Notes under the pieces: generated by a model
Databases searched by the model: none
The model's input: only the letters and a program-made list of their open reading frames with translations
What the model was told of the DNA's origin: nothing
Shown: piece after piece, positions 56-11,349 of the stretch
Layout of the letters: each line of letters opens with the position of its first letter
Numbering within the stretch: the first letter of the stretch is position 1
Position numbers and translations under genes: made by a program
IMG/VR virus record: IMGVR_UViG_2724679172_000001
Location: 1-11,593 of that record
DNA length: 11,593 bases
Reading direction: 5' to 3' (one strand)
Source of the DNA: a virus
Taxonomy: Duplodnaviria > Heunggongvirae > Uroviricota > Caudoviricetes

Positions 56-142
56 GGAGAGTAGGGAGCATGGTGCTCAAGCGGTCTTGAAAACCGTCCC
101 ATTGCGCAAGCGATGATGGTTCGATTCCATTACTCTCCGCCA
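56..142 (+). tRNA. tRNA-like gene, class II (long variable arm), anticodon UGA, so tRNA-Ser(UGA)-like; atypically short D-arm
   Basis: Manual fold: perfect 7-bp acceptor stem GGAGAGT (56-62) with ACTCTCC (132-138); discriminator G139; encoded CCA 140-142; T-arm GATGG / TTCGATT / CCATT (115-131) with the conserved GTTCGA box; anticodon stem 81-85 with 93-97 and 7-nt loop CTTGAAA (86-92) giving U33 then UGA; 17-nt variable arm (98-114) with a 5-bp stem. The D-arm is only a 4-bp stem with a 5-nt loop, which is unusual. G73 plus a long variable arm plus UGA are mutually consistent with Ser identity. Confidence 0.5.
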
Positions 143-388
143 GTGCAACGTTAAGAGTATTTGGCTAATTAAGCGAATGCCGGAAGCAGAACCGGATCAC
201 CAAATGCGTACAGGCGTCATCGCCGCCCAGCCAGCCAAGTGCTCTTACCATTGCGGTGAATGCGGCTAAGCGCACGCGGAACAGTTAAAACAATCCTCCT
301 TAGTGGTTAAGTCAAACATCCCGGCGTTAATTGTTAACTGGTTAACGTCACCTGGAGGCACCAGGCACCGCAACCTAATAAATACGTC

Positions 389-1127: not shown

Positions 1128-1203
1128 GGCCCCTTAGCTCAGTGGTTAGAGCTGGCGACTCATAATCGCACGGTCACCGGTTCAAGTCCGGTAGGGGCCA
1201 CCA
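1128..1203 (+). tRNA. tRNA with CAU anticodon; closely resembles enterobacterial tRNA-Ile2 (ileX/ileY type, lysidine-modified to read AUA); would be typed Met(CAT) by anticodon alone
   Basis: 76 nt: GGCCCCTTAGCTCAGTGGTTAGAG...GACTCATAATCGC...GGTTCAAGTCCGGTAGGGGCCACCA. 7-bp acceptor stem GGCCCCT with AGGGGCC, canonical D-arm, anticodon loop CTCATAA, T-arm GGTTCAAGTCC, encoded CCA. The 5' half matches E. coli ileX/ileY as I recall them. P1-like phages are known to carry a tRNA for the rare AUA codon. Confidence 0.85.
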
Positions 1204-1656
1204 TATTTGGTTGTAACACGGCGTATGGCACATGCGTCGTTAGCGGTCTGGTGACGTTAAAGGGGTTACCTTTTCCCCTAGCTCAGGCAACAAACCAGGT
1301 AGCCGGAATGTGCAAGCCCCGTTCATATCGTCGGACCGAGGACTCACCATCCTGGCGATTCGGTGTGACAGCCGGAAGAGTACGGCGCACAACAGGAAAA
1401 GGCGTTTAATTAGCGTGAGCGCCGTTTCCGTTGTGGTAATTGCGGCTATGCGCTCGTGACGAAGCCATTTTCATTCACTACGTTCTGATAAGTGACGTCG
1501 CCAGGAGTGGCTAACCTGGCAGGTGGAGGCACCACCGCCACAACTCCTTTCAATTCATCATATAGCCGCTCAGGCTGTAACCCTTAATTAATACGAAGTT
1601 TCGACATCTCTATCGGTTTAACCGAGGGATGGTCGCGCGTGTAAAAAGGAGACGTT

Positions 1657-2232
1657 ATGTTAACGGCGAACGATAACGCGTATGCAGAAGCAGATCTCAT
1701 ATTGAGTGACTTCATCGGTCAGCGGGAACGCTGGACACAAAAGCGAGAGGAACTTTATGCCTCGTTAGTTCGCAAAGGTGTCAACATTGAAACCGCTCAA
1801 AGCGGCGATATGACGGTAGTCAGTGTTGGATTACATGGTGTGAGCGTGTCCGCAGCCAATCATGAGCCATACGTAGCGTTATCAGAGTCGATGGCAAGGC
1901 TAATTAAGTTTCTGAAGCAAACAGAAGCCAATAATGTTTTCATCGCCAAAAAGAACATCAATTTTTCTGCCGCCGTGTTCTGGATGATGAAGGGGCTTGA
2001 CGCCCGCCGGGCATCATGGCCTAAAGGGAGCTATATGTCGATGTTCCGTGGCAGTATAGGCAGCAAAGAAAAGCTCGTCGAATTCCTGCCGGAAGAAGCA
2101 TTCGATATTGTGGAAGGGTGCGATGTGATGGTTATGCCTCGGCTGGTAATGATGAATGGAGACTTACAGGCACAGACAGACTGGTTCGCCACTGGCGTGG
2201 ATATTATCGCGACTGACTGGGAGGCATTCTGA
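1657..2232 (+). CDS. hypothetical protein (191 aa); C-terminal ~90 aa is a DUF2829/Tad2-like domain paralogous to the C-terminus of the 9880-10542 product
   Basis: ORF with a strong RBS (AAGGAG at 1645-1650). C-terminal FSAAVFWMMKGLDARRASWPKGSY ... DWFATGVDIIATDWEAF aligns with FSDALMWLKDGKKVARRGWNGENQF ... PWVPSVGDLLACDWFVVE of the 220-aa ORF. The shared pattern FS-A--W-K-G--ARR--W--G ... W---V-D--A-DW is visible directly; the DUF2829 name is from memory. Confidence 0.6.
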   Translation: MLTANDNAYAEADLILSDFIGQRERWTQKREELYASLVRKGVNIETAQSGDMTVVSVGLHGVSVSAANHEPYVALSESMARLIKFLKQTEANNVFIAKKNINFSAAVFWMMKGLDARRASWPKGSYMSMFRGSIGSKEKLVEFLPEEAFDIVEGCDVMVMPRLVMMNGDLQAQTDWFATGVDIIATDWEAF

Positions 2233-2624
2233 TGTACGAGACCACAAAATTAAGCATTCACGAAGTATCCAATGTGGAGTGGAATATCGTCACCTGTAAG
2301 ATTGTATCGTGTAATGCTGCGCGTACTGATGCAGGCCATAAGAGCACGATAACAGGCTACATGGTAATGGCTTATAGGGGATTGAGAGTTCGCTTTATCT
2401 GGAAAGCTCGGCAATTGACACCATTCAGAGAGCCGTCAATGCCATTAGAGGTAGAACAGGATTATTTAAGCCTGCCGGAAATAGACGGTGCAACGCTGGT
2501 GGATTCTGATGGTCGTAAGGCTGATTTTGAAGTCAGCTTAAAGGTGGCGCAGGCCGTAATTAATAACTCACGTGGTAAGTGGATCGCTAAGGTAAAACAC
2601 GTCGTTCGCTTATCTCGCTGGTAG
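2232..2624 (+). CDS. hypothetical protein (130 aa), translationally coupled to the upstream ORF
   Basis: ATG at 2232 overlaps the TGA stop at 2230-2232 of the preceding ORF (TGATG). No motif recognised. Confidence 0.5.
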   Translation: MYETTKLSIHEVSNVEWNIVTCKIVSCNAARTDAGHKSTITGYMVMAYRGLRVRFIWKARQLTPFREPSMPLEVEQDYLSLPEIDGATLVDSDGRKADFEVSLKVAQAVINNSRGKWIAKVKHVVRLSRW

Positions 2625-2732
2625 TGTTAGATGAATGGAATTAATTTTCTAATATAACCAACTTTTTGCCAGTCTATACAGAAATAACATTCTCATTATC
2701 ATCCCCTCGGTCATTTCCTGCCTGGGGGATTA

Positions 2733-3125
2733 ATGGAGCATATCAGCAGCGCAGAAATTGCGGATATCATGATTAGGGCTGACTGCTATCTGACAGTCAC
2801 CGAAATCACCACTCTAGCTAAAGAAAAATATCCTCACCTTCATGTTTCACGCGTAAGTGTAACCAACATCATTCGGCATTTTGTGCGGTCAAGCCGAGCT
2901 ATTTGTGAGCTTGATGATCGTGTTTACCCACGGAAATACTGGTTGCATGGCCTGAACGGATATCAGTTCAAGGTGCGCGGGCGCACGCCTGAATACGGTA
3001 GCTTACTGGTTAAAAACTGTAGCAGGAAATCAGTCGAACAGGCGCGAAAAGAGCAACGAGAGCTGGTGGACATGGCGAATAAGCTGTGGAATGCCGCCGT
3101 TAAAAAGCGTGGTGTTGCTTTATGA
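2733..3125 (+). CDS. putative winged-helix DNA-binding protein; positional candidate for an Lpa-like late-promoter activator immediately upstream of pacA
   Basis: RBS GGGGGA 5 nt upstream of the ATG; stop overlaps the pacA start (ATGA at 3122-3125). Sequence LTVTEITTLAKEKYPHLHVSRVSVTNIIRH looks like an HTH. In P1, lpa lies directly upstream of pacA. The function is by synteny only. Confidence 0.45.
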   Translation: MEHISSAEIADIMIRADCYLTVTEITTLAKEKYPHLHVSRVSVTNIIRHFVRSSRAICELDDRVYPRKYWLHGLNGYQFKVRGRTPEYGSLLVKNCSRKSVEQARKEQRELVDMANKLWNAAVKKRGVAL

Positions 3126-7060: not shown

Positions 7061-7270
7061 TATTCCTACTCGATTTAGTTTTCTAACATAAAATTACTAT
7101 GACAAATTTATGTCGAATAACAGGGTGAGTAAAGGATCGAACTGTGATTTTTTGTCATCAATTTTAGAAAACCAACCGTAGAAACCACACTTCGCAAATT
7201 AAAGACCATGAAGGCAACGTGTTACTGGTCATCATCAATCTATGATGGATTAAAAAAAATCGGCATTTTA

Positions 7271-8483: not shown

Positions 8484-8544
8484 ATTAAATTTCTAACACA
8501 TCTTTTTAGATTGATATCTTTGCTGTAAAGTACCCTCGCCTATT

Positions 8545-9879: not shown

Positions 9880-10542
9880 ATGGTCAGCACTTTTCAGGTG
9901 TTCCCCAAATACAAATGCCACAGCATCATTCGGGCATCGAAAATCAAAGATATTGTTATTGTCGGCAAAGCTTATGCGCCCATTTTTGGCAGTATCGAAG
10001 TCGTTGAGCCAAAAGGAATGACGCTTCGTGTTGATGGTGTGTTCTTGGAAAAATTCCGACCGCAAATAGGAGGATATCTCGTCACTGCTGAAAATGGCTA
10101 TCTGGTCTATGTGCCAGAGAAAGCATTTGAAAAATGCTATAGCCGGGTTAACGACGCCTCCGAAAATGGGGTATCGCTCAGCATTGAAGGTCACAATGGG
10201 GTGACATTCATTACAGCCAGGGACGTAACTATTTCTGCTGGCGGTATCGCTACTCTACAAGAAGAAATCGACCTTGAAGCAGCCGACTTTTCTGACGCGC
10301 TGATGTGGCTGAAGGATGGCAAGAAAGTTGCCCGGCGCGGGTGGAACGGCGAAAACCAATTCTGCTGGCTGGTTCCTGAAGGACAGTACCCGGCACGAAT
10401 GGAAGCCATTAAGGGATATTTCCCCGGCGATCTCGTTCCGTATGGTGCTTATTTCGCCTTAAAAAATGCACAAGGTGTAGTTGTTCCGTGGGTGCCTTCG
10501 GTAGGCGACTTACTGGCGTGTGACTGGTTTGTAGTGGAGTGA
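9880..10542 (+). CDS. two-domain protein (220 aa): N-terminal domain of unknown function plus C-terminal DUF2829/Tad2-like domain
   Basis: Strong RBS AGGAAGG before the ATG. C-terminal FSDALMWLKDGKKVARRGWNGENQF ... VVPWVPSVGDLLACDWFVVE fits the DUF2829 signature as I recall it (F-EAL-ALK-GKKV-R-GWNG ... LA-DW-IV) and is paralogous to the C-terminus of the 1657-2232 product. Confidence 0.65.
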   Translation: MVSTFQVFPKYKCHSIIRASKIKDIVIVGKAYAPIFGSIEVVEPKGMTLRVDGVFLEKFRPQIGGYLVTAENGYLVYVPEKAFEKCYSRVNDASENGVSLSIEGHNGVTFITARDVTISAGGIATLQEEIDLEAADFSDALMWLKDGKKVARRGWNGENQFCWLVPEGQYPARMEAIKGYFPGDLVPYGAYFALKNAQGVVVPWVPSVGDLLACDWFVVE

Positions 10543-10548
10543 TTTGAC

Positions 10549-11349
10549 ATGGAAAGCACCAAAACAATTCAATACCGCTTGCGTAATGGCCTGCTGGTGG
10601 CTGTTAACGCTGATATGTCACTGCCGTTTGACACGATAGAACGCACTATCATGACGTATCTCGGCTTTAATGAAGAGCTGAATGAAGAGCATGGCGTAGC
10701 TATATGGAGTGATGCAGAAAGCGGCGTTCATCGTTACATCACCGCCAGGGGCAAAGACTACTCTCTGGAAGAACTGTTTACCCTTGCACAGTCTTTCGAA
10801 TGTGTAGCATTAGACATGTTTAATGATCCTGCTATAGCGCAACGACTTATACGCGAGCTTGGACTATCCGTTACACCAATTATCTTTAAGAATGGCAGCC
10901 TGACTGGCACATGGCGCGTAGAACGCATCTCAAACTACCTTCCATATAACCGACAGTTAAATGGAGTAATCTCCGGCGTTAATCAGCCCGTAGCGTGTGA
11001 AAATGTAAACCTGGTTGCCGCTGTTTTGGCAACCGCATGTCGTGTTATCGGTTTGGCTAAACAGGCTTTTATTCATTTCCCAAATGGTGCAGAAGGTAGC
11101 GCAGAGATTATCGCGTGTGATTTCGAATTTACCTGGATGCTACGCGAATATCTGGACCAAACAGTGTTCCGCGCCGAAGAACTGGATATGTATATCACGT
11201 CAACGATTCCTGATGATGTGCGTGCTGAAGCAATCGCCACAGCAAGGGCCAAATGCCGTGCGGCGATTGCAGAGCAGGCCAAAGAAGAACCGTCCGATGA
11301 AGCCGTGGCTGATGTTGAAGCAGAGGTAGCGGAGGATGCTGACGCCTAA
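10549..11349 (+). CDS. hypothetical acidic protein (266 aa) with a poly-acidic C-terminal tail
   Basis: ORF with GGAG 9 nt upstream. By my hand count about 41 Asp+Glu against 22 Lys+Arg. C-terminus EEPSDEAVADVEAEVAEDADA. Last gene of the operon; followed by an intrinsic terminator. Confidence 0.6.
   Translation: MESTKTIQYRLRNGLLVAVNADMSLPFDTIERTIMTYLGFNEELNEEHGVAIWSDAESGVHRYITARGKDYSLEELFTLAQSFECVALDMFNDPAIAQRLIRELGLSVTPIIFKNGSLTGTWRVERISNYLPYNRQLNGVISGVNQPVACENVNLVAAVLATACRVIGLAKQAFIHFPNGAEGSAEIIACDFEFTWMLREYLDQTVFRAEELDMYITSTIPDDVRAEAIATARAKCRAAIAEQAKEEPSDEAVADVEAEVAEDADA

Follow-up and report, generated by a model that had tools for sequence, protein, structure and literature searches.

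A predicted two-domain Tad2-family protein and its overlapping orphan gene upstream of lpa in D6-like phage-plasmids

What do two small overlapping genes do in front of the packaging genes of a P1-family plasmid prophage, and do their products depend on one another? The question is raised by a DNA stretch of 11,593 nucleotides (nt) from the virus record IMGVR_UViG_2724679172_000001, called here the window (11.6 kb). In it ORF-A (an open reading frame, ORF, of 191 amino acids, aa) and ORF-B (130 aa) follow a tRNA gene, and lpa, pacA and pacB lie directly downstream. The first-pass annotation had placed both genes, their TGATG overlap and these neighbours as we find them. We conclude that the module is a variant of the Tad2 family, distinguished by an extra domain, a changed pocket and an orphan gene that is coupled yet dispensable, and that it is no new kind of system. 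Coordinates of all features are collected in Table 1.

The Tad2-like domain of ORF-A and its pocket

Residues 102-190 of protein A match PF11195 (Tad2-like, formerly DUF2829) with E 3e-9 and 37.7 bits, the cut-off being 25, over profile positions 2-72 of 73. When the A-family profile was searched against PDB by hmmsearch, SptTad2 (8wjd) was found with E 0.0087 at residues 100-189, which is the whole domain. We also compared the family by hhalign with a Tad2 reference profile consisting of the solved ModTad2, HgmTad2, SPO1 Tad2 and SptTad2 together with the 220-aa Tad2-domain protein of the window; the probability was 94.7% and E was 5.9e-8 over 90 columns. Judged by these matches, A ends in a true Tad2/DUF2829 domain of ~90 residues, as had been supposed from the first reading of the sequence.

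The likeness to the known Tad2 proteins (SPO1 gp34.65, PDB 8SME/8WJE; HgmTad2/AcrIIA7, 8KBI; SptTad2, 8WJD; ModTad2, 9EIB) runs across the whole DUF2829 domain. It includes helix alpha1 (NIPFSxAxxWM), the Trp of the GWNG motif and the C-terminal W...D..A.DW motif, and A is phage-encoded as they are. In contrast to them, A carries an extra family-specific N-terminal domain of 100 residues, lacks the phosphate-binding Asn, has several changed contacts on the adenine side, and is followed by a translationally coupled orphan gene. The N-terminal domain has no Pfam or PDB relative in profile searches. Among 5.8 billion proteins searched by profile, it was found solely fused to the A-type Tad2-like domain in this phage group.

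Which of the ligand-binding residues does A retain? Tad2 is a homotetramer with two pockets formed between non-dimeric protomers (10.1101/2023.05.01.538930). In SPO1 Tad2 with 1''-3' glycocyclic ADP-ribose (gcADPR), W25 and W73 make van der Waals contacts and N26 and D79 make polar ones (10.1101/2023.05.01.538930). Their equivalents in HgmTad2 are W21, N22/G23, W87 and D93 (10.1101/2023.11.15.567273). The diphosphate is contacted by Asn26 in SPO1 Tad2 and by Asn22-Gly23 in HgmTad2. In A the residues W121, W176 and D182 correspond to W25/W73/D79 of SPO1 Tad2 and to the gcADPR contacts W21/W87/D93 of HgmTad2. None of the three varies within the A family, in 7 lineages whose identity falls as low as 33%. 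With them A retains three of the four core ligand residues of the solved proteins.

The explanation that we favour, and to which we give about an even chance, makes A a variant sponge of the Tad2 type that takes up a host immune nucleotide and complements the canonical Tad2 of this genome; B is in this view a co-translated, dispensable accessory. We infer the oligomerisation, the ligand and the sponge activity by analogy with the solved proteins. The C-terminal domain of A would oligomerise as theirs does, and a pocket between subunits would be lined by W121, W176 and D182. This pocket would bind and sequester a nucleotide-derived host immune signal of the Thoeris, CBASS or Pycsar type, whereby the phage would be shielded from signalling-based defence. 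B would be either a modulator or the product of an independent moron, and A would have no need of it.

Several observations weigh against this explanation. The Asn of GWNG (Asn26 in SPO1 Tad2; Asn22-Gly23 in HgmTad2) is not kept in A, where the window has Pro122. Most lineages of the A family likewise have Pro, whereas L040 has Ala and L038 Arg, and L035 has a deletion at this position. The five reference Tad2-domain sequences that were aligned (the four solved proteins and the 220-aa protein of the window) all share GWNG; the window and the majority of lineages read S/N-W-P-K-G instead. Other contacts are changed as well, T78/T92 to Val and, with reference to HgmTad2, A78 to Asn and V84 to Gln. 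Only ~1% of short Tad2s were judged by Li et al. to be without a functional gcADPR site (10.1101/2023.11.15.567273), which makes the pocket of A atypical. AlphaFold2 models on shallow alignments were unusable, with a predicted local distance difference test score (pLDDT) of 42.2 for A and 36.5 for B, and a sigma-70 scan of positions 1204-1656 gave no promoter for the pair.

On the alignments, A is a real member of the Tad2 family with a partly rewired pocket. Because Tad2 homologues vary widely in ligand, the list including 3'cADPR, His-ADPR, N7-cADPR, cyclic dinucleotides and the cyclic mononucleotides cCMP/cUMP (10.1101/2025.08.24.671296), altered specificity seems more likely for A than a dead pocket. 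Its ligand probably differs from that of the canonical Tad2 in the same genome, since the phosphate-contacting Asn of GWNG has been replaced. The A subfamily was not found in the accessible part of the supplementary files of the 2025 Tad2 survey.

The canonical protein, of 220 aa (phrog_872; homologues in SJ46, RCS47 and Ro157c2YLVW), resembles A in that its Tad2 domain lies at the C-terminal end of a longer protein. It differs from A in having a canonical GWNG pocket very close to ModTad2, and its Pfam score is 80 bits versus 38 for A. In hhalign comparisons its N-terminal part showed no relation to the N-domain of A or to B, and the next gene (266 aa) does not overlap it. The presence of a second, canonical Tad2 in the same phage fits paralogue specialisation.

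The orphan ORF-B, its coupling to ORF-A and its loss

ORF-A and ORF-B are genuine genes under purifying selection. They correspond to orf6 and orf5 of Escherichia phage D6, a P1-family plasmid prophage, where both are annotated as "hypothetical protein". Between the window and D6 the nonsynonymous divergence (dN), the synonymous divergence (dS) and their ratio (omega) are 0.044, 0.59 and 0.08 for ORF-A and 0.127, 1.17 and 0.11 for ORF-B; lpa has omega 0.01 and dS 0.35. Identity to D6 is 91.6% for A, 77% for B and 99% for lpa. B diverges faster than A and A faster than Lpa, and the module as a whole faster than its flanks, which is typical of accessory or arms-race genes. As the dS of the pair is high compared with lpa and with the 96.5% identity of window and D6 overall (across 63% of window length), the segment is a mosaic piece from a more distant relative and no site of positive selection. 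A stretch of 1.55 kb around the two genes is 99.6% identical to an 87.6-kb E. coli plasmid.

The junction of the two genes is compact. The last base of the TGA of ORF-A (2230-2232) serves as the first base of the ATG of ORF-B (2232-2234), and a Shine-Dalgarno (SD) sequence, GGGAGG, lies 7 nt ahead of this ATG within the conserved Trp-Glu codons of the C-terminus of A. Both TGATG and SD are conserved in six of the seven divergent lineages; the seventh has TGAATATG, and a relic is present in the lineage that lacks B. The coupled arrangement read from the window is therefore a conserved one, and the ribosome-binding site reported for ORF-A was found again as AAGGAG, 5 nt before the ATG. By this arrangement B is predicted to be made through translational coupling from its own SD within the 3' end of ORF-A. 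A programmed frameshift fusion of A and B was ruled out, as B has its own conserved SD and ATG.

Protein B had been described as unrelated to A and without known family, and our searches agree. Profile searches of Pfam, NCBIfam, PADLOC and PDB gave no match for B, and hhalign detected no relation of B to Tad2, to A or to the N-terminal part of the 220-aa Tad2 protein. For B and the N-domain of A, profile searches returned only unnamed PHROGs (7362 and 7004) and noise, the match of B being phrog_7004. The invariant residues of B (W17, C22, G42, W57, Q61, G86, G94, W117 and K120) suggest a folded protein and show no catalytic motif.

How widely are the two genes distributed? A word-indexed search of 5.8 billion clusters gave five hits for B, and when 1.84 billion representatives were searched exhaustively with a HMMER profile, ~9 true relatives were found, down to 28% identity. 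The fragments P0005, P0020 and P0021 derive from B and match its N-terminal part only; a match of the B profile to P0024 (496 aa), a repeat protein, was judged spurious. In every context recovered (27 IMG/VR loci, nine metagenome or genome contigs, and D6) B is immediately preceded by a Tad2-like gene of 191-204 aa and followed by lpa-pacA-pacB. Gene order and junction are shared by all 37 loci with B, and the pair is found with its junction in seven lineages, down to 28-35% identity. In PLSDB, A occurs in 119 plasmids and B in 118, mostly of Escherichia, then of Salmonella and Shigella. In a tblastn search of 50,697 phage records, A and B matched D6 only; homology to the P1 genes upstream of lpa, which the first-pass annotation had named as a refutation of its interpretation, was not found. 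We regard the two genes as a small accessory operon that belongs to the D6-like group of P1-family phage-plasmids in Escherichia, Salmonella and Shigella and is specific to it.

The same annotation had called B an obligate partner of A, and this claim fails. Three independent sequences of one Enterobacter-associated lineage (metagenomic contigs L040 and L041 and the complete Enterobacter plasmid NZ_CP074151) have an intact 191-aa A, no B, and lpa 160 nt downstream. Their junction reads ...GGCATTYTGATGACC... and continues into a six-codon stub (MTGLQK and a stop); neither six-frame searches with a hidden Markov model (HMM) nor tblastn detected a B-like sequence in this lineage. Here omega of A is 0.05-0.10 overall, 0.07-0.14 in the N-domain and 0.03-0.06 in the C-domain, at dS 0.7-1.7. 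Since both domains of A are under purifying selection in the lineage without B, both function without it. B is dispensable.

Some copies of the module are interrupted. In L043 (1547-1936) B is split into ORFs of 40 aa and 85 aa next to an intact A, while in L034 (3207-4170) both genes are interrupted; either case may be module decay or assembly error. Several database entries for A and for B are truncated, and some of these may also be assembly errors.

Competing explanations for the pair

If A functions without B, could the two still form a heteromeric complex where both are present? The N-domain of A would then dock B, and B would tune or extend the ligand specificity or target another host factor, making the pair a two-component anti-defence unit. 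It speaks for such a complex that wherever B has been seen, A lies directly ahead of it (37 loci, nine divergent contexts, 118 versus 119 plasmids) and that the N-domain and B are confined to exactly the same phage group. The conserved 1-nt stop/start overlap with its internal SD points the same way, as coupling favours the equimolar co-synthesis typical of complexes. The constrained N-domain of the B-less lineage tells against it, however, showing that this domain has a function apart from B, and so do the interrupted copies (L043, with B split; L034, with A and B; the three B fragments), where sequencing or assembly error is possible. We regard the complex as unlikely. Unlikelier by far is a toxin-antitoxin-like addiction or abortive-infection module, which would correspond in position to phd-doc of P1. 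In P1 the slot holds phd-doc (88046..88267 / 88267..88647), which also overlap by one base, and then pdcA and pdcB ahead of Olpa/Plpa-lpa; A and B likewise occupy the region just upstream of a lpa promoter, here a probably C1-controlled one, in a P1-family plasmid prophage. Two small co-oriented genes overlapping at TGATG on a low-copy plasmid prophage fit this architecture, interrupted or truncated B (and also A) in several assemblies would fit loss of a toxin, and some homologues of A carry the RefSeq name "MW1434 family type I TA system toxin". Type I toxins, however, are short hydrophobic peptides, and the name, a label of the DUF2829 family, is implausible for a soluble protein of 191 aa. 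A and B have no sequence similarity to phd-doc, and searches of Pfam, NCBIfam and PADLOC linked neither protein to a family of toxins, antitoxins or defence proteins, the Tad2-like domain being the one match. A lacks a DNA-binding domain, and the scan gave no promoter immediately in front of it. That A is the toxin and B its antitoxin is excluded, since A persists intact where B is lost. B has not been met by itself, which would agree with B as the toxin and proves nothing. In experiments DUF2829 proteins have proved to be sponges (10.1101/2023.05.01.538930, 10.1101/2023.11.15.567273, 10.1101/2025.08.24.671296).

The same experiments bear on a further explanation, which accepts the Tad2 fold of A and denies it the role of sponge for an immune signal. 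A might have an anti-CRISPR-like or other protein-binding role, such as was once suggested for AcrIIA7, might sequester a housekeeping nucleotide such as cyclic di-GMP (c-di-GMP) and so alter lysogen physiology, or might have a degenerate pocket and act through its N-domain. A DUF2829 protein was indeed first reported as AcrIIA7 (10.1101/2023.11.15.567273, 10.1101/2023.05.01.538930), and HgmTad2 binds c-di-GMP with picomolar affinity (10.1101/2023.11.15.567273). The lost and variable GWNG Asn and the two-domain architecture, as opposed to sponges of ~90 aa, agree with it, and the module follows an RNA that elsewhere heads cassettes after prophage repressor genes, which hints at expression in the lysogen. 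Yet the three aromatic or acidic pocket residues are invariant down to the most distant members of the A family, and all DUF2829 proteins biochemically characterised so far are nucleotide sponges (10.1101/2023.05.01.538930, 10.1101/2023.11.15.567273, 10.1101/2025.08.24.671296). We think a role of this kind rather improbable.

Tad2 sponges are currently pictured as single-domain proteins of ~90 residues, and their ligand range is still being mapped. The A subfamily is unusual in its rewired phosphate-contact site, its private N-terminal domain, its co-translated orphan gene and the presence of a canonical Tad2 in the same genome, and it occurs in more than 100 sequenced phage-plasmids of E. coli, Salmonella and Shigella. 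The pair offers an inexpensive test case for the diversification of sponge specificity and for the question of whether sponges use helper subunits. D6-like phage-plasmids are common in enteric bacteria, and an anti-defence function, if true, could affect their host range.

Gene context, transcription and a structured RNA in the spacer

The order of genes in the window is tRNA-Ser, tciA-like terB, tciB, tRNA(CAT), ORF-A, ORF-B, lpa, pacA and pacB, followed by c1 on the minus strand, rox/dre, two unnamed ORFs, dut, the 220-aa Tad2-domain gene and the 266-aa gene. Wherever the sequence of a lineage extends far enough, the tRNA(CAT) gene lies upstream of the A-B module.

Table 1. Features of the window around ORF-A and ORF-B, with the evidence for each
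Feature	Position	Strand	Evidence or remark
tRNA, anticodon CAT (P1 trnI/ileX-like)	1128..1203	+	ARAGORN; Rfam tRNA 66 bits; annotation of P1 homologue; upstream alignments
Conserved structured RNA-like element	1214..1400	+	Alignments A11-A13; covariation counts; no Rfam family
RNA helix H1	1219-1223/1235-1239	+	Loop UAUGGCACAUG
Possible RNA pseudoknot	1228-1233 (GCACAU) / 1308-1313 (AUGUGC)	+	One compensatory event only
RNA helix H2	1244-1252 with 1294-1298 and 1302-1305	+	
RNA helix H5	1345-1348/1362-1365	+	
RNA helix H6	1371-1374/1383-1386	+	
Terminator-like hairpin with weak T tail, between RNA element and A-B	1401..1423	+	Consensus scan; putative
Spacer block with patchy similarity to window 249-363	1424..1540	+	Two shared blocks; 249-363 is a sub-threshold Rfam STnc100 match
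SD sequence AAGGAG of ORF-A	1646..1651	+	Sequence; 5 nt before ATG; kept in window, D6, L006 and L003
ORF-A, 191 aa, predicted two-domain Tad2-family protein (D6 orf6, YP_009914683)	1657..2232	+	
N-terminal domain of A (residues 1-100)	1657..1956	+	Profile search; orphan
Tad2/DUF2829 domain of A (residues 102-190)	1960..2226	+	Pfam; SptTad2 8wjd; hhalign; invariant columns
Coupling junction, GGGAGG (2219-2224) and TGATG (2230-2234)	2219..2234	+	Sequence comparison
ORF-B, 130 aa, orphan protein (D6 orf5, YP_009914682)	2232..2624	+	
TTAATTTTCTAATATAA, candidate operator of separate lpa promoter	2641..2657	+	Repeat search; P1 Olpa/Plpa annotation and sequence; inference
lpa, late promoter activator	2733..3125	+	PF25716 E 1.4e-56
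220-aa canonical Tad2-domain protein, GWNG kept	9880..10542	+	PF11195 E 1.6e-22; ModTad2 9eib E 5.8e-20 (residues 132-220)

From where could the pair be transcribed? A motif of the TTAATTTTCTAATATAA type lies between ORF-B and lpa and recurs near c1 (7075-7091; 7162-7176 on the minus strand) and after dre (8485-8498); it is also found upstream of lpa in L040, L041 and L044. It resembles the P1 C1 operator Olpa and has the same position before Plpa. No site in the window comes within 3 mismatches of the consensus ATTGCTCTAATAAATTT of the P1 C1 operator, and a D6-type variant was derived from the repeats instead. The repeats have a consensus of approximately TTARTTTTCTAAYATAA, which is probably the D6-type C1 operator. 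Because the Olpa-like motif sits between B and lpa, lpa probably has its own repressor-controlled promoter and A-B form a separate unit. The operon is thus placed, probably, between the spacer with trnI and the RNA on one side and a separately controlled lpa on the other.

The repeat search gave no operator-like motif between tRNA(CAT) and ORF-A. An Lpa-dependent promoter for the pair was considered and rejected: the -22 box of P1 late promoters (AAGTKACTT) is not enriched, and the copy at 1490 has no -10 element. In P1 the homologous stretch tciA-tciB-tciC-trnI is annotated as part of the C1-controlled ban operon. The most economical guess is that A-B are transcribed by read-through from the upstream tci-trnI unit past the hairpin at 1401-1423. 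The timing of this expression, like any contact between A and B, is conjectural.

The spacer upstream of ORF-A (453 bp, 1204-1656) had been described as free of ORFs. This stands insofar as no ORF in it is annotated or conserved; short mechanical ORFs (49-52 aa) are present, and the region is occupied in part by the structured RNA-like element of Table 1. In an alignment of 20 sequences the model of five helices and the pseudoknot has 96.6% paired cells, and 13 of its 28 pairs are changed on both sides (59 cells). None of 500 shuffles reached the observed value, and slid controls gave at most 12 cells changed on both sides. A 15-sequence version of the count was also made, the paired cells ranging from 96.6 to 97.6% across the counts. 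Fixed G-U pairs put the structure on the + strand. The case is built on covariation, because the folding z-score of the single sequence is only -0.75. No Rfam 15 family matched the element, also when the chromosomal copies were searched again, and a literature search with its sequence string gave nothing relevant.

The element follows trnI in every D6-like lineage, in the lineage without B and also in P1, with ban on its other side (L039:2452-2644). Without the tRNA it is found in chromosomal prophages of Escherichia, Kluyvera, Citrobacter, Erwinia and Pseudescherichia. It occurs as well in phages SPN1S (L064:1496-1670), Tyrion, mEp390 (L065:1496-1665), SopranoGao and others; a further copy is L047:6395-6570. 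By blastn it is present in 2163 of 5426 complete E. coli genomes (~40%) and annotated in none. In lambdoid prophages it comes directly after the repressor genes on the same strand, while in epsilon15-like phages it heads small cassettes that lie on the opposite strand between the terminase and portal genes. The copy of SopranoGao is directly preceded by a terminator and a TTGCAA-18-TATATT promoter. Identity with the HK022 put RNA, which is ~70 nt with two stem-loops, was set aside. Matches of a 19-mer in cyanobacteria, Actinomycetota and others were also discarded, about half of the 16 contig matches being due to chance and ~17 being expected.

We suggest tentatively, holding it possible rather than probable, that the element represents a class of structured phage RNA not described before (~170-190 nt, with five covarying helices and perhaps a pseudoknot between loop and strand) which heads accessory cassettes and controls or enables their expression, for example as a cis-acting antiterminator or processing element. 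The cassettes would be A-B in the window, ban in P1, the post-repressor genes in lambdoid prophages and the opposite-strand terminase-portal cassette in epsilon15-like phages, an assignment that we hold with the same reserve. If true, A-B would be part of an RNA-led accessory module. This unannotated covarying structure of so many complete E. coli genomes may matter more than the pair itself.

Many copies (among them L061-L064, L067 and L068) have an additional long-range helix 3' of the element, GAGAGCAY ... RTGCTCTC, with the compensatory variants GAGCGCAC/GTGCGCTC. Further 3' lies a tRNA in L063 and a GTTGTGGTRAWTGCG block in L062; at this place the window has just the hairpin 1401-1423. 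The full RNA may be ~300 nt long. Upstream of the tciA-like gene, window positions 252-372 (+) gave a sub-threshold Rfam match to STnc100 (39.4 bits, the gathering score being 47; E 8e-6). The spacer block 1424-1540 shares with this STnc100-like stretch two blocks in the same order, TTGYGGTRAWTGCGGCTAWGCGC and GGAGGCACCA, which suggests that it is a diverged second copy.

At the far end of the window, residues 57-98 of the 220-aa Tad2-domain protein match weakly the Dec protein of phage L (6e3c, E 0.002). The 266-aa ORF that follows (10549-11349) is phrog_2326 and is named isaA in SJ46. This stretch is ~87% identical to SJ46 and Ro157c2YLVW, and no D6 match is reported for it. The tRNA(CAT) gene is unannotated in the D6 RefSeq record (L001), which places tRNA-Ser, tRNA-Thr and tRNA-Asn on the strand opposite to that where ARAGORN and Rfam place tRNA-Ser (window 56-142). 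This tRNA-Ser(UGA) is tRNA-Sec-like in Rfam, with 43.5 bits, under the gathering score.

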